Positions 4,383-40,124 of a stretch of DNA of 53,813 nucleotides are shown piece by piece; within the stretch, counting starts at the first letter, position 1; each line of letters opens with the position of its first letter. Position numbers and translations under genes: made by a program. The notes under the pieces are model-generated. The model did not search any database, was not told the origin of the DNA, and saw nothing but the letters and a program-made list of their open reading frames with translations. Source of the DNA: Clostridia bacterium (GTDB lineage Bacteria; Bacillota; Clostridia; Oscillospirales; CAG-272); the NCBI GenBank assembly GCA_017451045.1, contig JAFSSK010000128.1:1-53813 (forward strand), written 5' to 3'.

Positions 4383-4418
4383 AGAATGATACTCCGTGTT
4401 CGAATGATCGAGAATGGT

Positions 4419-4448
4419 AAAAAACGGGCGGTGTTAGACCGCCCGTTG
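4419..4448 (-). terminator. intrinsic terminator of ferredoxin gene
   Basis: AACGGGCGG/CCGCCCGTT stem with minus-strand U run. Confidence 0.75.
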
Positions 4449-4473
4449 CTGTTTTATGAGATTGCGAAATACA

Positions 4474-4647
4474 TCAGGCGTCTGCTTTCGGAGCGCCGAC
4501 AGGACATGTATCTGCACAGGTTCCGCAATCGATGCACTTCTCAGGATCGATCTCGTATTTGCCGTCGCCTTCGGTGATAGCCTGGACCGGGCACTCTTCG
4601 GCACATGCGCCGCATGCTACACAATCGTCAGAAATCTTGTATGCCAT
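4474..4647 (-). CDS. 2x[4Fe-4S] clostridial-type ferredoxin, 57 aa (not in ORF track)
   Basis: Manual translation MAYKISDDCVACGACAEECPVQAITEGDGKYEIDPEKCIDCGTCADTCPVGAPKADA, two CxxCxxCxxxCP motifs; GGGAGG RBS; TTGCAT/TG-TATAAT promoter at 4681-4708. Confidence 0.95.
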   Translation of the reverse strand: MAYKISDDCVACGACAEECPVQAITEGDGKYEIDPEKCIDCGTCADTCPVGAPKADA

Positions 4648-16157: not shown

Positions 16158-17042
16158 TTATCCTCCTTGCTGATTGGTTTTTTTGCCGGACTGATCAAGG
16201 TAGCACTGCTTGAGGAGCAGCGCGTCGTCTGTCTGCGTGCCGGCGGATTCGCATATGACCGTCGGGCAGAGTCCGTTCTGTGCGATGGCGCAGGCGAAAG
16301 GCTCGTAAGGCGGTCCGTACTGATTGTCTGCGAACGTCAGGTGCCGTTTCTCTCCGGCTTCGGTGTATTCTATCTTGGAAAAATGGCAGTGCATATATCT
16401 GGCCGTTTCGTCTCCCAGTGCAAGGGCGATCCGCTCAAAGACGCGAGTGTAGTCGTCCGGCACGGCGAAACAACCGTTTTCTCTGGCGTTCAGGTGCCCG
16501 AAATCGACGACTGGAACGAACAGATCCGGGCAGACGAGGCACTGTTCGATGACCTCGTCCACCGTCCCGAGCTGATTGATCTTTCCCATCGTTTCGATGC
16601 CGATCTTTAACCCGTTGGGGACGGACAGCGACGCTATGCGGACGAGCATGTCCAGCGAACGTTTCATGGCGTCCCGGCGGTCCGCTTTTCCCGCCCCGCC
16701 GCTGTGCACGACGATCGTTCTGGCCCCGACCGCCTCCGCGGCCTGAAGGGACTCCGTGATGATCCGCAGATTCTGCTCCTGCGTTTCCGGACTTTCCGAG
16801 GACAGGGAAATGAAATAAGGCGCGTGTAAAGACATGTGTATGCCGTTCTTACGGGCTTCGTCTCCGACGGCCTGGAGTATGGAAAGATTGCGCGGGACCC
16901 CTCTGCCCGCCTCATATTCGTAAGCGTCGAGACCGTTCGAACGGACCCATGCCGGCGCCTGCTGTGAGTTTTTGTTCCCTTCGAGAGCGAACCTGTCGCA
17001 GTTCCCGCCGGGCCCGAACAGGGCTTTATTGGTGCCGTCCAT
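16158..17042 (-). CDS. endonuclease IV-like TIM-barrel protein
   Basis: FGPGGN, SLHAPYFISL, IETMGKINQLG, DFGH, HCHFSKIEY, ICES; AGGAG RBS before ATG 17042. Confidence 0.85.
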   Translation of the reverse strand: MDGTNKALFGPGGNCDRFALEGNKNSQQAPAWVRSNGLDAYEYEAGRGVPRNLSILQAVGDEARKNGIHMSLHAPYFISLSSESPETQEQNLRIITESLQAAEAVGARTIVVHSGGAGKADRRDAMKRSLDMLVRIASLSVPNGLKIGIETMGKINQLGTVDEVIEQCLVCPDLFVPVVDFGHLNARENGCFAVPDDYTRVFERIALALGDETARYMHCHFSKIEYTEAGEKRHLTFADNQYGPPYEPFACAIAQNGLCPTVICESAGTQTDDALLLKQCYLDQSGKKTNQQGG

Positions 17043-17044
17043 AG

Positions 17045-17551
17045 TCAGTCTCCTTTTTGGTGCTTGCGTTTGTAGCGGCGGATGACTGGCTTTTCCAGCC
17101 ACCGCTTGAAACGGAAGAAAAGAGTGGTTTTGTCTTTGATCGGCGGAACGATGATAGCTTTGAGCCCGATGTGCTTGCCTGCCAGGGCGTCGGTGAGCAG
17201 CTGATCGCCCAGAACAGCCGTTTCTTCTTTCGTGACGCCGAGCTGGCGCATGGCGATCTTCAGGTGCTTTGCAAACGGTTTGTGACTGTCCGGGAAGACA
17301 GGCAGACCGAGTTTTTGGTTGAACAACGTGATACGGTCGGCGTGGTTGTTGGACACGAGCGCCGCCTTGACGCCTGCGTCCGCCAGCTGACCCAACCACC
17401 GGATGATCTGTTCGTCCGGCTCCGGCATCTCGTAAGGGGCAAGCGTGTTGTCGATGTCGATCAGCAAAGCCCTGATCCCGGCGTCCGCAAGGAACGCCGG
17501 CGTTATATCATAGTAATGGTCGAACATATAGTCGGGCATCAGCCAACCCAT
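17045..17551 (-). CDS. yqeG: YqeG-family HAD IIIA phosphatase
   Basis: DIDNTL, VSNN, KP, GDQLLTD. Confidence 0.9.
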   Translation of the reverse strand: MGWLMPDYMFDHYYDITPAFLADAGIRALLIDIDNTLAPYEMPEPDEQIIRWLGQLADAGVKAALVSNNHADRITLFNQKLGLPVFPDSHKPFAKHLKIAMRQLGVTKEETAVLGDQLLTDALAGKHIGLKAIIVPPIKDKTTLFFRFKRWLEKPVIRRYKRKHQKGD

Positions 17552-17759
17552 AGCAACCTCCGTACATCAGAAAGGTGTGATCAAAGAATGTCCGGGAACC
17601 AGTGCGCGATATTGACCCTGCACGGCTCGCAGGGGACGGATGCCTGCTCCGCTCCAAACTATAATCAAAGTTATTATAACATATTTTTTATTTCAGCGGG
17701 GCTGTTTTTTGAAAAAGATGATCCGCGTACGGGATTGGCGGCTTACTCGTGTGTTTTCC

Positions 17760-17787
17760 TTGACTTTTCCAAATAATAAAGTATAAT
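17760..17787 (+). promoter_or_regulatory. sigma-A promoter of glycyl radical enzyme operon
   Basis: TTGACT-16 nt-TATAAT; GGAGGT RBS before ATG 17826. Confidence 0.7.
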
Positions 17788-17825
17788 TGCAAGTAGAAAA
17801 AAACGCATCGCTCGGAGGTGCTCAT

Positions 17826-20024
17826 ATGGAAAACACAAGAGAGACATGGCTGCTGCTTGAACCGTTCGCTATGGGGTTCAAAGAGGCCGACACGACAAAC
17901 ATCGCGCCAGAGTACAGACGCGAATACAGGATCGCGGCTGGCAACAGGAAGCAGATGGAACATATCCGGCTGCATATCGATCCGAAAGACTGGTTCGCCG
18001 GCCCGTGCGGCCGTTTCCCGGACCAGGGAATCAGGTACAACCGCGGGAACGGCATCTTCCATTTCGCACCGGATGATCTGGAGCGACGCTGCAGAGATTA
18101 TCCTGAGCTTGCGGAAGAATTCAAAAAGCTTTACGGTGAATTCGATCATATTCGTACCGACAAGATCGCAGGCGGGACGCTCAGACCCGATCAGCACGAA
18201 AGATGGAGCACCAAAGCCTGCTGGGGCGCGGGCGCCGGACATGCGAACCCCGATTATGAGATGCTGCTCCGCCTGGGGACCGACGGGATCCGCGAAAAGA
18301 TCAAAAGGTTCAGAAAGATAAACGTCGGGAAAGACGGCTTTTATGATGCGCTCGAACTGGCTTTGAGCGCTTTGGACGTGGTGGGAAAGAGATACCGGGA
18401 ACTGGCCCTTGCAATGCTTCCGGATGCATCCGCAGAGGATGCGGTCATCCTGAAAAGGATCGCCGACGCCTTGTCGGTCGTCCCGCAGAAAACGCCCAGG
18501 AACTTCTTCGAAGCCTGCCAGTTCTTCTGGCTCGCGTTCAGTTTCATCGACACCGACTCGCCGGGCAACTTCGACCAGTTCATGAAGGATTACTATCTGC
18601 CTGACGACAAGGCGGACCGGTATGAGTGCCTGCGTCATCTGTGGGAACTGTTCCACAGGACGAGGACCTGGAACCTGTGCATCGGCGGCAGCGACGAATT
18701 CGGGAACGACCTTTGCAACGATCTGACCTACGACGTGCTTCGCGTCGCCAGAGAATTCAAATATGAGACGCCGAACCTCACGATGCGGTTCCACAAGAAC
18801 AGCCCGGACAGGGCATGGCGGGCCGCAGCGGAAACGCTGGCGACCGGCATCGGGATGCCTGCCATCTACAACGACGACGTCGTCTGCCCGGCGCTCGAAT
18901 CGCTCGGCATCCCCGCGTCGGACTCTCACAAGTACTGCATGAACGGCTGCAACCAGATCGATATCTTCGGGAAATCCCACATGGGGCTGGAAGACGGTGA
19001 ATTCTGCGTGGCTAAGGCGCTGGAGTACGCGCTGTTCAACGGCGAGGACCAGTATAATTTCCATGTGCTGGGGCTGGAGACCGGAGAGGCAAAGGACTTT
19101 CCGGATTATGAGAGCTTCAAGCGGGCATTCCTTCAGCAGTGCGACTTTCTGGTCGACCAGGTGGTGGAGATCTCCAATCATATCCAGCAGATATTCGCCA
19201 AAGAGGCGCCTAACCCCTGGATGTCCTGCGTGATCCAGGGATGCATCGAGAAGGGGCAGGACTACAAGAATCACGGGCCTTTCTACGGACACGGTCAGAT
19301 CCTGACCGAGGGACTGCCTGATGCGGTAGATTCGCTCGCCGCCATCAAGCATTACGTGTATGATACGGGAAAGTACGCCATGAGCGATCTTGTGAAGGCG
19401 CTCAAAGCCAACTTCGAAGGCTATGAGGATCTTTACAGGGATTTCTCAACGTACCATAAATTCGGAAACAACATCGAGGACGTAGACGCAATTTACGCCG
19501 AGGTCTCCGATCACATTTACGAATATGCGCGCACCAAAAAGACGTTCCGGGGAGGCTACTTCGGGATGGGGTGCTCGACTTTCAACCGTTCTGCGGACTA
19601 CGGAATTCATCTGGGCGCGCTGCCGAACGGGAAGAGGCGGGGCGAGTCCACCCTCGGGGAGAGCATCGGCCCTGTCCCGGGATGCGACACGAACGGTCCC
19701 ACGGCCATGCTCAACTCCGTCCTGAAATGCAACCAGTACCTGGCGACGAGCGGCAATGTGCTGCAGATGAAATTCATCAAGAGGCAGTTCGAGACCGAGG
19801 AAGGCATGAACGCGTACGTGGCGCTTGCGAAGACCTATTTCAGACTCGGCGGACAGACGCTGCAGATCAACGTTGTCTCGCAGGAAGAGCTTCTTGACGC
19901 AGTCGCCCACCCCGACAAGCACCAGAACCTGATCGTCCGGGTCGGCGGATTCAGCGCCTACTTTGTGCGGCTGGACAGCGGCCTTCAGGAAAACATCATC
20001 AAGCGGACGCAGATGGGTTTCTGA
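17826..20024 (+). CDS. glycyl radical enzyme (PFL-like fold), uncharacterised subtype
   Basis: C-terminal NLIVRVGGFSAYF glycyl loop, LQINVVS, ALPNGKRRG, Cys loop YCMNGCNQ. Confidence 0.92.
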   Translation: MENTRETWLLLEPFAMGFKEADTTNIAPEYRREYRIAAGNRKQMEHIRLHIDPKDWFAGPCGRFPDQGIRYNRGNGIFHFAPDDLERRCRDYPELAEEFKKLYGEFDHIRTDKIAGGTLRPDQHERWSTKACWGAGAGHANPDYEMLLRLGTDGIREKIKRFRKINVGKDGFYDALELALSALDVVGKRYRELALAMLPDASAEDAVILKRIADALSVVPQKTPRNFFEACQFFWLAFSFIDTDSPGNFDQFMKDYYLPDDKADRYECLRHLWELFHRTRTWNLCIGGSDEFGNDLCNDLTYDVLRVAREFKYETPNLTMRFHKNSPDRAWRAAAETLATGIGMPAIYNDDVVCPALESLGIPASDSHKYCMNGCNQIDIFGKSHMGLEDGEFCVAKALEYALFNGEDQYNFHVLGLETGEAKDFPDYESFKRAFLQQCDFLVDQVVEISNHIQQIFAKEAPNPWMSCVIQGCIEKGQDYKNHGPFYGHGQILTEGLPDAVDSLAAIKHYVYDTGKYAMSDLVKALKANFEGYEDLYRDFSTYHKFGNNIEDVDAIYAEVSDHIYEYARTKKTFRGGYFGMGCSTFNRSADYGIHLGALPNGKRRGESTLGESIGPVPGCDTNGPTAMLNSVLKCNQYLATSGNVLQMKFIKRQFETEEGMNAYVALAKTYFRLGGQTLQINVVSQEELLDAVAHPDKHQNLIVRVGGFSAYFVRLDSGLQENIIKRTQMGF

Positions 20025-20025
20025 T

Positions 20026-20964
20026 ATGGTGTTTGCGATTGTCGGCGGCGTACTGCTTGTAGTGGTGGCGGTTGTTTGCCTTTTCCTGAACAGGATCATT
20101 TTTTACTCGCCGCTACCCGGCCAGAGCGACCATTTCAATCTTCCGAAAGGGGAGCAGCTCGACCCGTACAGGGAAGGGGTCCTCAAGGAGATCGCCGAAC
20201 TGGAAAAAGTGCCGTTCGAGCCGGTGGAGATCCGGGCGTATGATAAGATACGGCTGTTCGGCCGGTTCTACAAAGGGCGGGAAGATGCTCCCTTCATGAT
20301 CCTTTTCCACGGTTTCCGCGGAACGTCCATAAGAGATTTCGGCAGCACGGCCAGATGGCTGATCGGAAAAGGCCTCAACGTTCTGATGATAGACGAACGG
20401 GCTACGGGGAAAAGCGGCAGCCATTCGATCACATACGGGATCAAGGAACGGATGGACTGCCTTAGCTGGACGGACTATCTGGAGGACAGGTTCGGTAAGG
20501 AGATCAGCGTCTGCTGGTTCGGGATTTCGCTGGGCGCCGCAACGGTGCTCATGGCGTCCGGACTGGATACGCCGCAGTGCCTGAAGGGGATCATCGCGGA
20601 CGCGCCGTACTCGTCCCCCTCCGAGATCATATGCGAAGTCGGAAGGGCAGGCGGATTCCCGGTAAAGCTTCTTTACCCGTTCGCGGTCCTGACAGCGGCC
20701 GTGTTCGGACATTTCAACCTGAGAAAGACTTCCGCCGTCGAGGCGGTCAAACAGGCGAAAGTGCCGATCCTGCTCATCCACGGCGACGATGACAGATTCG
20801 TCCCGTGCCGCATGGGGATAGAGATCGCGGAAGCCAATCCGGCCATCAGGCTGGAACTGTTCCCGGGTGCCGGGCACGCGCTCTGCGCTTTGACGGACAC
20901 CGAAAGATACAGGGCGCTTGTGGAGGCATTCCTTAAGGATGTTGCAGGCACAAGTCAGTGGTGA
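20026..20964 (+). CDS. membrane-anchored alpha/beta hydrolase (YqkD-like)
   Basis: N-terminal TM, FHGF, GISLG nucleophile elbow, IHGDDDRFVP, GAGH. Confidence 0.88.
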   Translation: MVFAIVGGVLLVVVAVVCLFLNRIIFYSPLPGQSDHFNLPKGEQLDPYREGVLKEIAELEKVPFEPVEIRAYDKIRLFGRFYKGREDAPFMILFHGFRGTSIRDFGSTARWLIGKGLNVLMIDERATGKSGSHSITYGIKERMDCLSWTDYLEDRFGKEISVCWFGISLGAATVLMASGLDTPQCLKGIIADAPYSSPSEIICEVGRAGGFPVKLLYPFAVLTAAVFGHFNLRKTSAVEAVKQAKVPILLIHGDDDRFVPCRMGIEIAEANPAIRLELFPGAGHALCALTDTERYRALVEAFLKDVAGTSQW

Positions 20965-20970
20965 TAAGTA

Positions 20971-21004
20971 CACCCGGCAGGGCTTCGATGAGTCCTGCCG
21001 GGTG
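20971..21004. terminator. strong hairpin after hydrolase gene
   Basis: CACCCGGCAGGGCT...AGTCCTGCCGGGTG stem; no U tract directly after. Confidence 0.5.
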
Positions 21005-21027
21005 CCGGTCACTGCCTAAAAAAGTTC

Positions 21028-21056
21028 TTGACAAAACAATAGGGATATGGTATCAT
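21028..21056 (+). promoter_or_regulatory. promoter of tRNA cluster
   Basis: TTGACA-17 nt-TATCAT with TG extension. Confidence 0.8.
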
Positions 21057-21072
21057 AATCAACGTTCCGAAT

Positions 21073-21146
<74 letters not shown>

Positions 21147-21149
21147 TAT

Positions 21150-21226
21150 GTGCCTTTAGCTCAGCCGGATAGAGCAACTGCCTTCTAAGCAGTAGGTCGA
21201 GGGTTCGAATCCCCCAAGGCACGCCA
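21150..21226 (+). tRNA. tRNA-Arg(TCT)
   Basis: GTGCCTT/AAGGCAC acceptor; ACTGC-CT TCT AA-GCAGT; TTCGAAT; CCA. Confidence 0.95.
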
Positions 21227-21240
21227 GCGGAACAACATAT

Positions 21241-21318
21241 GGTGGGATTGGCGCAGTTGGCTAGCGCGTCAGGTTGTGGCCCTGAAGGTCGTGGGTTCGA
21301 GCCCCATATCTCACCCCA
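21241..21318 (+). tRNA. tRNA-His(GTG)
   Basis: G-1; TCAGG-TT GTG GC-CCTGA; GGTTCGAG; CCA. Confidence 0.95.
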
Positions 21319-21416
21319 TATGGCTATTTTTGTACGAATTAGTGCAAAGATAGCCGTTTTTCTTTGCCAATTATGTGCAAATCAACTATTAAAAATAATC
21401 AATTCGTGTTACCAAA

Positions 21417-21450
21417 TTGAACCCACTTTGAACCCACTTTTGAACCCACT
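21417..21450. repeat. three direct repeats TTGAACCCACT (putative integrase arm-type sites)
   Basis: Identical 11-mers at 21417, 21428 and 21440, between tRNA-His and the integrase stop. Confidence 0.7.
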
Positions 21451-21460
21451 TTTTGCGCCA

Positions 21461-21640
21461 TCATATTCCATCCAACAATGATCCTATCAACGCATGGTCT
21501 TGTGGCATAATGTGAGAGTAAGTGTTGTAGGTTTGGGTTACAGAGGAGTGACCGAGTCGCTTGCTTACGGCGGTAACCGGGACTCCGGAAGACAGCAGAA
21601 AAGATGCGTGACTGTGGCGCAGATCGTGAACTCTGATATG
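21461..21640 (-). pseudogene. C-terminal remnant of tyrosine integrase
   Basis: HDLRHSHAS, LGHSS, TYNTYSH catalytic motifs; N-terminal part absent; converges on tRNA-His 3' end. Confidence 0.88.
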
Positions 21641-21880
21641 TACTTGCAAGTGCTTTTGTATACAACAATAGTGTTGTCCCAGTTAAACTTGAGATAAAAG
21701 AGCGAAGTGATGTAGATAACTCACTATATATTCTTGCAGCAACTGAGGCAATAGAAAAAGATGAAATTGACAAAAAATCAATTTCATCTAACGGGGTCGT
21801 GGAGGGTGTCCGCAAAAGCAGTCATTCCTCTGCCCATGTAATAAGTATAGCACAACTCCTTGAAGAAATCAACCCATCAA
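21637..21880 (+). pseudogene. internal fragment resembling phage large-polyvalent-protein domain
   Basis: Start-less open frame YVLASAFVYNNSVVPVKLEIKERSDVDNSLYILAATEAIEKDEI...ISIAQLLEEINPS; family call from recalled motif similarity. Confidence 0.5.
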
Positions 21881-22332
21881 AAATCCATAGTATGCACCGC
21901 TTTGTATTATTAAAGCCAGGGACACGAAATGGGTTATTCTCTGTAAATGTTGCTCTGCATGCCTTGCATATGTATCTGTGTTGATGAATTTCATAAGTAA
22001 TTGGATGCCCTGGCTCCAATGGAACATCTTTGAGTTTAACCACTTTTTGCCCGTGTCCTATTACATTTCCGCAACAATGCGGGCAACAGGTGTCTGCCGT
22101 TGTTCTCGTGCTGAAAAGCTTTATGGTCTGTTGTTCATCGTTGTCTGAAAAGGCTAATTCTTCGCTTACATAATATTGACATTTTACGCCAAAAGTTGTA
22201 TCGTTAAGTAAAGTCATGGATGCTTCCTCCGGTATGGTTTTTGGTGGTACTTAAAGTATACCATATGGAAGCTCCATGGCTTATTTATTTTTTCAATTTG
22301 TCCAACTCAAACACACAAAAATGTGAAGAGCC
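21880..22332 (-). mobile_element. ISL3-family element, left half (IRL + 5' transposase fragment 22217->~21880)
   Basis: zf-ISL3 CPHC...RYICKAC; terminal GGCTCTTCACATTTTT at 22332-22317. Confidence 0.8.
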
Positions 22333-22346
22333 TTTTTATTGCACAC

Positions 22347-22382
22347 AAAGGCGCCGCTTTCTAATTGAAGGCGGCGCCTTTT
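22347..22382 (-). terminator. terminator downstream of rnpB
   Basis: AAAGGCGCCGC...GCGGCGCCTTT stem. Confidence 0.75.
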
Positions 22383-22386
22383 AAGG

Positions 22387-22742
22387 AGCAGATCTGTCGA
22401 TAAGCCGGGTTCTGTCGTTGAACGGTCATCTATCTTCGCTGGTTATTGCTAAACAGCTTCGGGAGCGATCCCGTGCCACCTAAGGATATATGTCGGGCCG
22501 ACATCCTTTACGGTGTTGCTTCGGATAGGGTTTACAGCGGACACATGTTGCCATGTGAACGAGTGGGCTCTTACCCCGCTTTTCCACCCTTACCTGCGAG
22601 TCGCAGGCGGTTTGTTTCTGTTGCACTTTCCCGGCGGTTACCCGCGGCGGATGTTATCCGTTATCCTGCCCTGTGAAGCCCGGACTTTCCTCACGGTAAT
22701 ACCTTTCGGCACCATACCGCGCGACCGTCTGGCAGACCTGCT
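22387..22742 (-). ncRNA. rnpB: RNase P RNA (type A)
   Basis: GAGGAAAGTCCGGGC near 5' end, ACAGAACCCGGCTTA near 3' end, P1 AGCAGGTCTGCC/GACAGATCTGCT. Confidence 0.95.
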
Positions 22743-22784
22743 TGTGCTCCGGGTGCTGAAAACAGCTCCTGCCGGAGCATTTCT

Positions 22785-22852
22785 ATTATATGGATTTGAA
22801 TGATGTTTGTCAAGCAATTCCATTTGACTTAGAAAAGGAAAAGCGATATAAT
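22785..22852. promoter_or_regulatory. back-to-back sigma-A promoters (rnpB minus; phosphatase plus)
   Basis: Minus TTGACA-17-TATAAT (22813-22785); plus TTGACT-17-TATAAT (22824-22852). Confidence 0.8.
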
Positions 22853-22877
22853 TATTTCACTTTCAAGATAGCGAGGG

Positions 22878-38163: not shown

Positions 38164-38384
38164 AATGAACCCCCTGGTTATATCGTTCTTTTGTTCACAA
38201 AAAATAGAATTGCATAATGCTACGGTCGATAAGTATCATATACTAGCAAGAATGTTTAGTCAAGGTTTTGCCCAGCCAACGATCGGGGACAACATCGGTG
38301 TCTTGAATTTGAATGCCGGCAGCCGTAATTCACGACAAATCCGAGCCCTTGACCAACCGGCGCAGGACTCGGATCTGTGTTGTC

Positions 38385-38469
38385 TGGTGCGAGAAACGGG
38401 ACTTGAACCCGTACGGTGGTTACCACACGCCCCTCAAACGTGCGCGTCTGCCAGTTCCGCCACTCTCGC
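38385..38469 (-). tRNA. tRNA-Leu(GAG)
   Basis: GCGAGAGTGGCGGAACTGGCAGACGCG..TT GAG GG..long variable arm..GGTTCAAGTCC..CCA; TTGACA/TATAAT promoter at 38511-38484. Confidence 0.95.
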
Positions 38470-38678
38470 TCGGAACACTCATAATTATACACATCTCTGC
38501 TGATTTGTCAAGCATTTTTTGTCAGGAACGCAAAATACGAAAGGGCATGTCCGCCTTGCCGGAAGGAAAGCCGGAAAGAACGTTACAACGGGCTTGGGAA
38601 GGATTTCCGTTCCTTGACAGAAGTTCTCTTGTAGATTATAATTATAATGGAATTTTATTCATTAAGCGGAGGTCGCTC

Positions 38679-40124
38679 ATGGAAGCGGAAAGACCTGTAG
38701 CCTCTCACCAATTGTCTTTGCGTGACAGCGAAACATGTCAAAAATATATACTTGCGGTAAAAAAGGCCAACCAGGAAAAGCGGGAAGAAACAGGACGTTC
38801 TCCCCGCGCCTATGTGCTGACTTTCGGATGCCAGCAGAACGAGGCGGACAGCGAAAAACTGGCGGGTCTCGCTTCTGAAATGGGGTATGAGAAAGCCGCT
38901 CATCCGGATGAGGCGGATCTGATCATCGTCAACACGTGCGCCGTTAGGGAGCACGCCGAGCAGAAAGCCCTGTCCATCGTGGGACAGTACAAGCACCTGA
39001 AAGCCAGGAATCCGGAACTGGTGATCGTGATGTGCGGATGCATGGTGACGCAGGCTTTCAGGCAGAACGAGATCAAGCACAATTACCCGTATGTCGATAT
39101 CGTGTTCGGCGCGTCTTCGATGTTCCGGTTCCCGCAGCTTCTGTGGGAACACATGGAAAAGGAAAGAAGACTGATCATCCCGGACGAGGAAACATATCTT
39201 GTGGCCGAAGGACTTCCGGTCCGGCGGAACAGCACATACCGGGCATGGGTATCGATCATGTACGGGTGCAACAACTTCTGCACCTACTGCATCGTGCCGT
39301 ATGTGAGAGGCCGCGAGCGTAGCAGAAGCAAGGAAGACATCATCAGCGAAGTCGAAGAACTCGTGAAACAGGGATATAAGGATATAACGCTTCTGGGGCA
39401 GAACGTCAACTCGTACGGACATGACAATCAGGACGGAGTGGATTTTGCGGATCTGCTTGCACTGATCGACAATATCGAGGGCGATTACACCATCCACTTC
39501 ATGACCAGTCACCCGAAGGACGCGACAGAGAAGCTGATCGACGTCATCGCATCCGGCAGACATATCGCGCATCATTTCCATCTCCCTCTGCAGTCCGGGA
39601 GCGACAGGATCCTGAAGGCGATGAACAGGCATTATGACGCCCAGCATTACAGGAAAGTTTTGAACTACTTAAGACAGCGGATCCCCGACGTGACGGTGAC
39701 GTCCGATATCATGGTGGGATTCCCCGGGGAAACGGAAGAAGATTTCTGCGATACGCTGGCATTTTTAGCGGAAGCAAGATTCGACATGATTTTTTCCTTC
39801 ATCTACTCGCCAAGGAAAGGAACGCCTGCCGCGGAAGCCGCGGACCAGATCCCGCCCGAGGTCAAGAGCGACCGGTTCAGCAGACTGCTGCAGCAGCAGA
39901 ACGAGATCTCGCTTGAATCGAACAGGCGCCTTGTCGGGAGCACCCTGAGGGTCCTGTGCGACGGGCCGAGTAAAAATGATCCTGATGTATGGAGCGGACG
40001 TACGGACGGGAACAAGATCGTGTTCTTTGACGGGTCAAGGGAAGACATCGGCCGGTTTCTGACGATCAGAATCACGCGGGCGGAAGCGTTCGCGTTATAC
40101 GGGGAGAAGGAGTCACATGGATAA
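38679..40124 (+). CDS. miaB: tRNA methylthiotransferase MiaB
   Basis: TFGCQQN, NTCAVRE, CNNFCTYC, TRAM tail; TTGACA-17-TATAAT at 38614-38642; GGAGG RBS. Confidence 0.95.
   Translation: MEAERPVASHQLSLRDSETCQKYILAVKKANQEKREETGRSPRAYVLTFGCQQNEADSEKLAGLASEMGYEKAAHPDEADLIIVNTCAVREHAEQKALSIVGQYKHLKARNPELVIVMCGCMVTQAFRQNEIKHNYPYVDIVFGASSMFRFPQLLWEHMEKERRLIIPDEETYLVAEGLPVRRNSTYRAWVSIMYGCNNFCTYCIVPYVRGRERSRSKEDIISEVEELVKQGYKDITLLGQNVNSYGHDNQDGVDFADLLALIDNIEGDYTIHFMTSHPKDATEKLIDVIASGRHIAHHFHLPLQSGSDRILKAMNRHYDAQHYRKVLNYLRQRIPDVTVTSDIMVGFPGETEEDFCDTLAFLAEARFDMIFSFIYSPRKGTPAAEAADQIPPEVKSDRFSRLLQQQNEISLESNRRLVGSTLRVLCDGPSKNDPDVWSGRTDGNKIVFFDGSREDIGRFLTIRITRAEAFALYGEKESHG

Follow-up and report, generated by a model that had tools for sequence, protein, structure and literature searches.

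The DNA analysed here, which we call the window, is the whole 53,813-nucleotide stretch of a Clostridia bacterium (contig JAFSSK010000128.1 of assembly GCA_017451045.1; genome G000 in our set, 82% complete in 189 contigs), and its positions 17826–20024 (forward strand) encode a glycyl radical enzyme (GRE) of 732 residues. This GRE is a real, intact and selectively maintained member of a large uncharacterised family with a fixed C-X-Q (CXQ) cysteine loop, which we name the NGCNQ family after the residues of that loop. On balance we lean towards the view that the enzyme is live, that it is activated in trans by a radical S-adenosylmethionine (SAM) activase encoded on contig C41 of the same genome, and that the α/β hydrolase gene immediately downstream is a chance neighbour.

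The open reading frame (ORF) begins with an ATG eight bases after a GGAGG, and a sigma-70-like promoter match (TTGACT-16-TATAAT, 11/12; 17760–17787, forward strand) lies 39 nt 5′ of the start. This is the gene's own promoter of the earlier note, a model's reading of the same letters, and it is a consensus match only, with no functional evidence attached. The protein has the sequence features of the superfamily: the PFL-like barrel (PF02901, 368.1 bits), the C-terminal glycine radical domain (PF01228, 94.5 bits), an RVxG[FYW] loop and the catalytic cysteine. The glycyl loop is R705-V-G-G708-F (19938–19952, forward strand), in which Gly708 is the predicted radical site, read from what we take to be the register of RVxG[FYW]. 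The cysteine loop, MNGCNQ, comprises residues 372–377 (18939–18956); the coordinates originally given for it, 18945–18956, hold for the last four residues, G374-C375-N376-Q377, and not for all six. HMMER alignments place these four exactly over the GCVE of the solved diol, glycerol and propanediol dehydratases, with Cys375 on Cys433 of glycerol dehydratase; Cys375 is therefore the catalytic cysteine, and the predicted site of the thiyl radical, and Gln377 replaces the glutamate of the eliminases. His139 (codon 18240–18242, forward strand), aligned with His164 of glycerol dehydratase, is invariant in the NGCNQ family. The AlphaFold2 model (pLDDT 91.4) superposes on solved GREs at TM 0.84–0.89 with 21–27% identity (Foldseek). 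ORF, Pfam and HMMER results thus agree with the intact 732-residue GRE, complete with MNGCNQ and RVGGF, that had been read from the letters.

The glutamine is a fixed trait of the family. A word-indexed homologue search gave 989 proteins with E ≤ 1e-20 among 8000 scored, and MNGCNQ is found in 119 of the best 120 of these 989, which are ~720–730 residues long and, the window's own protein aside, 55–66% identical to it. An exhaustive search of cluster representatives finds NGCNQ in 11/11 of the nearest 50%-identity clusters (39–65% identity, some of them fragments), and the bit score falls from 459 to 383 just beyond the family. Because GCNQ is shared across both sets, it is not a private mutation of this copy, the outcome that the earlier note had named as fatal to its view. 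One single-member cluster (P0024) reads MNGGNQ, with glycine replacing the catalytic cysteine in an otherwise conserved loop, the cause being a sequencing error or a genuine lack of the cysteine.

The family is one of Oscillospirales-type Clostridia of ruminant and other animal guts, combining the invariant N-G-C-N-Q cysteine loop with an RVGG[FY] glycyl loop. Scanning one genome per species gave 473 pattern matches, 463 of which encode a relative; the family is widespread in gut and rumen bacteria. The best 80 of these 463 stretches (L033–L112) are recorded as Acutalibacteraceae, Oscillospiraceae and unclassified Clostridia metagenome-assembled genomes, sampled from the guts of goats, cattle, horses, deer, buffalo and humans; some genomes carry two family copies (e.g., L052/L063, L047/L096 and L057/L098). 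Family-specific polar residues surround the loop (N373, N376, H385, E389, D390, E392 and S584), and where the family has S584 other GREs have Y, F, V or I.

With regard to the known GRE types, the enzyme scores under every NCBIfam cut-off: 364.6 bits against 678.2 for PFL2-3 (TIGR01774), 338.7 against 1100 for HypD, 284.9 against 1050 for CutC, 276 against 1109 for the PflD equivalog and 80.5 against 994 for the PflB equivalog, with the eliminase-type equivalogs together (HypD, CutC, HpsG, HpfG, PflD) at 276–339 bits against cut-offs of 1000–1109. Among solved structures it comes closest to propanediol dehydratase, glycerol dehydratase, HypD and CutC (E 4e-85 to 1e-76), and no solved GRE is more than 27% identical to it; the expectation that it would cluster with no characterised GRE is borne out. 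Its cysteine loop differs as well. Pyruvate and ketobutyrate formate-lyases have two adjacent cysteines on this loop (PMC13450708), while the window GRE has a single one, in G-C-N. The eliminases and isomerases described in the same review (GD, PD, HypD, CutC, IslA/IseG, HpsG, HplG, YbiW and PflD) all have C-X-E (CXE), with the glutamate hydrogen-bonded to the substrate, whose hydroxyl it binds and, in most proposed mechanisms, deprotonates (PMC13450708); the motif here is C-N-Q, invariant in the family. What C375-N-Q377 does match is the CXQ loop of PhdB, and PflB and BssA have serine at the position of Glu/Gln (PMC7079210), two cases that the earlier note's account of known cysteine loops had left out. 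Our literature search found no paper for "GCNQ" with glycyl radical, the PhdB paper as the sole match for "CXQ" with glycyl radical, and an unrelated review only for GRE with aldo-keto reductase; the portions consulted of the AARE paper (PMC11528403) and of the 2026 GRE review (PMC13450708) do not mention the NGCNQ family.

A FastTree phylogeny of 143 GRE representatives (50%-identity clusters) divides into two groups with support 96. The larger (92 rows) has mostly G-C-V-E loops, RVAG or RVSG glycyl loops and proteins of 780–850 residues; the smaller (51 rows) has shorter proteins (710–785 residues) and RVGG loops, and contains the NGCNQ family (9 rows, support 99), whose neighbours are an NGCAQ protein and groups with GGCTE, AGCSQ and AGCGQ. 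CXQ occurs in 33/143 representatives, 29 of them in the RVGG group, and 0/48 scanned members of that group reach any NCBIfam cut-off. The RVGG clade (the P0134–P0243 set) also includes [CV]GCGQ loops, and one protein of its AGCSQ/GGCSQ group, P0192 (1019 residues), has NCSGY and no RVxG at the glycyl-loop position and may be a fused or rearranged form.

The gene looks live and is under purifying selection. Among the alignment positions at least 97% conserved in 126 relatives it keeps 145/147, the two changes (A611G and D612E) being conservative, and its variants in other samples are 19 synonymous and 3 nonsynonymous. The stretch is found in runs of 12 studies. One contig from run X3 (3442 nt) spans 17700–21100 with 26 differences and one from run X2 (1408 nt) spans 19693–21100, and since contigs of two other studies thus bridge the junction between the GRE and the hydrolase, this is no assembly artefact. 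We regard it as most improbable that the copy is a decaying or silent remnant left after loss of its activase: the 53.8-kb contig has no activase and the genome no aldo/keto reductase (AKR) partner by tblastn, both of which would suit such a remnant, but the reading frame is intact, the conserved positions and the variant pattern are those just given, the gene persists across entire clades of 15 and 7 species with no activase next to it, and the genome encodes three activases.

The operon context of the family was established on the best 80 stretches, 77 of which contain a complete GRE. All ORFs around these loci were clustered and representatives were then scanned against Pfam and NCBIfam; downstream counts refer to the 75 loci with at least 900 nt of 3′ sequence, and upstream counts to the 71 with at least 900 nt of 5′ sequence. 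The usual family operon is a DkgA-like AKR or a short-chain dehydrogenase/reductase (SDR), then the GRE, then a radical SAM activase. Directly 3′ of the GRE, starting within ~50 nt of its stop, 47/75 loci encode a radical SAM activase that carries a ferredoxin insert (TIGR02494, 324 bits); L100 has one farther downstream, after an intervening AKR, and 27/75 are without. Directly upstream on the same strand are a DkgA-like AKR (20/71) or an SDR (5/71), and reductase, GRE and activase occur together in 16 loci; L075 and L046 are examples with an AKR. The family is therefore not orphan by nature, although its member here had first been called an orphan.

In the window, the activase slot is occupied by the hydrolase gene (20026–20964, forward strand; 312 residues with a hydrophobic N-terminus), which has the α/β hydrolase fold according to Pfam (Hydrolase_4, 54.9 bits with a cut-off of 27; Peptidase_S9, 37.6; Abhydrolase_1, 37.2). 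Its ATG at 20026 follows the GRE stop (TGA, 20022–20024) after a gap of 1 nt, exactly as first noticed, and it is probably co-transcribed with the GRE. From this arrangement a new two-gene system had been proposed, in which a translationally coupled membrane hydrolase releases or processes the substrate of the GRE, and the 1-nt gap with no terminator-like site in it, the junction present in contigs of two other studies and the hydrolase's own variants (12 synonymous, 5 nonsynonymous) all suit that idea. We nevertheless hold it to be very improbable, because a homologue of the hydrolase occurs in 0/80 family loci and the slot belongs to the activase in 47/75. Furthermore, the hydrolase family is common elsewhere, with homologues in 20/41 related genomes in other places; in G003, which has a family GRE, they are encoded on different contigs, and in G001, a genome of the same genus, none reaches E ≤ 1e-20. 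The earlier note had itself made a conserved neighbour the test of the pathway link, and with the hydrolase absent from 80/80 related loci that link fails. The hydrolase is an incidental neighbour in the slot where relatives encode the activase, the recurrent partner is an AKR or SDR, and a "GRE plus hydrolase system" does not stand. A hydrolase homologue (35% identity) also lies 1.3 kb from a different GRE, on the opposite strand, in G010:C6:53113–57056, where the GRE contains one in-frame TAA; this is probably a coincidence.

The window was correctly described as lacking an activase. The sole radical SAM match on the contig (39249–39767) falls within ORF 38313–40124, whose UPF0004, Radical_SAM and TRAM domains are MiaB-like, as had been recognised, and tblastn with the family activase finds no activase remnant in the 53.8 kb, the best match (E 0.098) being to a small ferredoxin-like ORF (4411–4644). 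In a tree of 78 GREs (family loci and window), the window GRE is sister (support 99) to that of L045, which keeps an adjacent activase. Across this tree adjacency has changed in at least 8 places, of which well-supported branches force at least 6, and the clades of 15 and 7 species mentioned above have no adjacent activase throughout.

Five genomes with an orphan family GRE (G061–G065) were searched whole. In each of G061, G062 and G063 the family GRE is accompanied by a second GRE, which has a short activase of its own, and by a single full-length activase with no glycine radical domain beside it; in G061 this activase is on the same contig as the family GRE and 81 kb from it. G064 has no GRE besides the family one, and its sole full-length activase lies on another contig directly after an AKR. 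G065, with 18 glycine radical matches, is uninformative. The G064 pair (G064:C23, L140, 1356–3089) has AKR and activase still adjacent, which resembles a three-gene operon from which the GRE has been excised. Each unlinked activase of G061–G063 (L137–L139), genomes of the 15-species clade, has an endonuclease/exonuclease/phosphatase-family gene immediately before it, with GDSL lipase and YhhN genes on its flanks, an arrangement kept in all three genomes.

The window genome likewise encodes activases elsewhere, as anticipated: C41:80041–80952, C6:2450–3262 and C41:62928–63701. As assembled, it contains as many intact GREs as activases, three of either kind, and one GRE and one activase lack a partner. 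The C6 activase adjoins an intact GRE of 706 residues with DGCWE and RVSGW loops (C6:328–3262), and a 702-residue GRE with VGCIE and RVSGF has its own activase at C41:62928–65806; both paired GREs are 30–33% identical to the window GRE. The remaining activase, C41:80041–80952, is an intact ferredoxin-domain activase and lies 15 nt after a 307-residue PFL-like N-terminal fragment, which in turn follows a cyclophilin gene, all on one strand (G000:C41:80041–82429; locus L012, 451–2839). The fragment covers profile positions 129–322 of 647, and neither a cysteine nor a glycyl loop is found in the region. IQ-TREE analysis (ultrafast bootstrap/SH-aLRT) unites the 48 linked family activases (47 adjacent plus that of L100) and the unlinked one of G064 in one clade (90/85), while a second (100/100) holds the C41:80041–80952 activase, the unlinked activases of G061–G063 and the activase adjacent to the G035 family GRE. 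Partner-less beside a GRE remnant and grouped with unlinked activases, C41:80041–80952 is therefore the best candidate for a trans activator, and we infer that it is most likely the activator of the window GRE.

Somewhat less improbable than the alternatives above, although still unlikely, is that the same enzyme is activated in trans by the C6 activase (G000:C6:2450–3262), or by the second C41 activase (C41b), shared in either case with the activase's own GRE. The C6 protein is the best tblastn match in this genome to a family activase (48% identity and 243 bits, against 39% and 217 bits for C41), and the unlinked activase of G064 is 47% identical to it and 44% to the C41 activase. The C6 activase is also 51% identical to a family activase (L072), as family activases are among themselves. 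Against it, the C6 activase lies outside both clades that serve the family (split 88/69), whereas C41 is inside one at 100/100, and it has an adjacent GRE of its own with a different glycyl loop, RVSGW. Activation in trans is likely to be the state here, as the earlier note proposed, given the three activases elsewhere in the genome and the unlinked activases of G061–G064. We favour, by the same modest preference with which we hold the reading as a whole, a history in which the GRE became separated from its activase after the split from a same-genus relative, an unrelated hydrolase now standing in the activase slot.

The reaction is probably a radical conversion of a sugar-derived substrate. 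GRE activases cleave SAM and abstract a hydrogen from the loop glycine, from which the radical passes to the loop cysteine; the thiyl radical then removes a hydrogen from the substrate and gives it up again to the product radical (PMC13450708). By analogy, the trans activase would put the radical on Gly708, whence it would move to Cys375, and the Cys375 thiyl radical would attack a polar substrate, probably derived from a sugar, by taking one of its hydrogens; the carbonyl compound so formed would be reduced by the reductase, if the operon has one. Hydrogen bonding by Gln377 would hold the substrate in position, since this residue is no general base like the eliminase glutamate. A base could come from elsewhere in the pocket, as the polar family residues and Glu389, the equivalent of Asp447 in glycerol dehydratase, make possible. 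The recurrent reductase partner argues for a carbonyl product or precursor, and the neighbourhoods of relatives point to carbohydrate breakdown, without fixing the substrate: they include glycoside hydrolases of families GH31 (with an MFS_2 transporter), GH43, GH29 (with GH38), GH42 and GH5, an SSF transporter, two heparinase II/III genes with a zinc-dependent alcohol dehydrogenase and GH4, 2-keto-3-deoxy-6-phosphogluconate (KDPG) aldolase, xylose-isomerase-like TIM barrels, and IclR and AraC regulators.

The CXQ loop itself allows another interpretation, namely that the family consists of decarboxylases of the PhdB kind, in which an essential glutamine plays no acid/base part and a carboxylic acid, either an arylacetate or a sugar acid, is converted. 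No characterised GRE other than PhdB is said to carry CXQ, and changing its glutamine (Q484E, Q484A or Q484L) abolishes or nearly abolishes activity (PMC7079210); among the relatives, moreover, heparinase II/III genes adjoin the GRE of one and a KDPG aldolase gene lies near that of another, and both kinds of enzyme act on sugar acids. We think this interpretation unlikely. NCBIfam scores are nearer the eliminases (HypD 339, HpsG 294 and CutC 285 bits, against 202 for IAD and 147 for HPAD), as are the PDB matches (propanediol dehydratase 290 bits, arylacetate decarboxylase 200, HPAD 80), among which there is no PhdB entry. Decarboxylation to a hydrocarbon has no need of a carbonyl reductase, and the pocket residues are polar (N373, N376, S584, E389, D390 and E392).

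Besides the closeness of the C6 activase to family activases, several points weigh against a live sugar-converting enzyme activated by the C41 activase. Every step of the argument is computational. The RNA libraries of two studies yielded contigs that match the GRE (X15, 18630–18882; X19, 19257–19522) and the hydrolase (X15, 20159–20382) at 99–100% identity and that cover 6 and 5 of 30 bins of the stretch, yet they are weak evidence of transcription because contaminating DNA is possible. The assignment of the activase relies on phylogeny and elimination; the seven-member clade of the C41 activase also holds G003_C34 and G001_C3, which lie beside other GRE types, and since the genome is 82% complete and in 189 contigs, another activase or GRE may have escaped notice. 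A tblastn search of that incomplete genome found no AKR homologue, and the reductase step may therefore be absent in this organism. Relatives differ in their neighbourhoods, with no single sugar pathway recurring. E-to-Q mutants of CutC and HypD are inactive (PMC7079210), and eliminase-type chemistry with glutamine would therefore need another base. Finally, His139 was dropped as an argument for dehydratase chemistry, being present in 125/143 GRE representatives.

More speculatively, and with a good deal more doubt than attaches to the reading above, the NGCNQ GREs, and perhaps the whole RVGG clade (about half CXQ), may carry out a radical reaction undescribed in the superfamily, on a sugar-derived substrate and without a cysteine-loop glutamate base, together with routine activation in trans, one activase lineage serving unlinked GREs. 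If this is true, adjacency would be a poor guide to the pairing of GREs and activases. Activation is the main practical bottleneck of the GRE field according to the 2026 review (PMC13450708); the recurrent unlinking constitutes a natural test set for activase specificity, and the window genome contains both a partner-less activase and an activase-less GRE. The eliminase-like scaffold, fixed glutamine and carbonyl reductase partner make the family a defined target for new anaerobic radical chemistry in carbohydrate breakdown.

The surroundings of the gene pair show no synteny with the 80 family loci. Divergent from the GRE is a xylose-isomerase-like TIM-barrel protein (413 residues; 16158–17399, reverse strand), a homologue of which occurs in 0/80 family loci; unrelated members of the same Pfam family adjoin the GRE in L105 and lie near it in L065, which may be coincidental or may hint weakly at function. 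A ~1.9-kb region of lower G+C (20965–22877; 0.51 against 0.57) separates the hydrolase from a phosphodiesterase/LamG gene; it has several promoter-like and terminator-like sites and small ORFs (21239–21481, 21399–21815, 21822–22217 and 22513–22803) without Pfam matches or further copies in the genome. The one flank link is the phosphodiesterase/LamG protein, 35% identical to one after the activase in L051; at this level the link is too weak to make a case for replacement of the activase in situ. In the same-genus genome G001 the xylose-isomerase-like neighbour borders the end of its contig and the phosphodiesterase is on a different one, and for this reason no insertion boundaries were drawn.

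Among known systems, the propanediol and glycerol dehydratases (5I2A/5I2G, 9RCO and 1R8W) are the best matches (E 4e-85; TM 0.88, query-normalised, for 5I2G). Their cysteine and glycyl loops are in register with those of the window GRE, whose Glu389 is acidic like Asp447 of glycerol dehydratase, a residue that we take to have a role in that enzyme. His139 keeps the place of His164, the proposed proton donor to the leaving hydroxyl (PMC13450708). Like these dehydratases, the NGCNQ family is paired with a ferredoxin-domain radical SAM activase, which would activate it. The differences are nonetheless clear: identity is 25–27%, CXQ stands in place of CXE and RVGG in place of RVAG, the window GRE is ~55–110 residues shorter, and the SNGHSI loop of glycerol dehydratase is a 6-residue deletion in the window GRE. 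The partner in the NGCNQ family is an AKR or SDR, and no microcompartment genes are seen in the annotated neighbourhoods. HypD is the best NCBIfam equivalog match (338.7 bits), and its activase model is the top model for the family activase (315 bits); both scores are far under their cut-offs (1100 and 425), and HypD has CXE and is inactive as the E-to-Q variant.

PhdB, the phenylacetate decarboxylase, is the sole characterised GRE reported with CXQ, in which its glutamine is essential (PMC7079210); it converts phenylacetate to toluene, whereas the NGCNQ family is marked by polar pocket residues and by a carbonyl reductase as its partner. YbiW and PflD, which open the ring of 1,5-anhydrohexitol-6-phosphate, resemble the family as PFL2-type enzymes of sugar metabolism (Foldseek TM 0.85–0.86), and differ in 22–26% identity and in keeping CXE, with the glutamate on the C2 hydroxyl. 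An aldolase splits their product into glyceraldehyde-3-phosphate and hydroxyacetone (PMC13450708). Many relatives of the window GRE are likewise encoded amid glycoside hydrolase and sugar transporter genes. The fructose-6-phosphate aldolase gene directly upstream of the GRE in L112 recalls this pathway, and a DkgA-like reductase, with the substrate range that we presume it to have, could reduce such a ketone.

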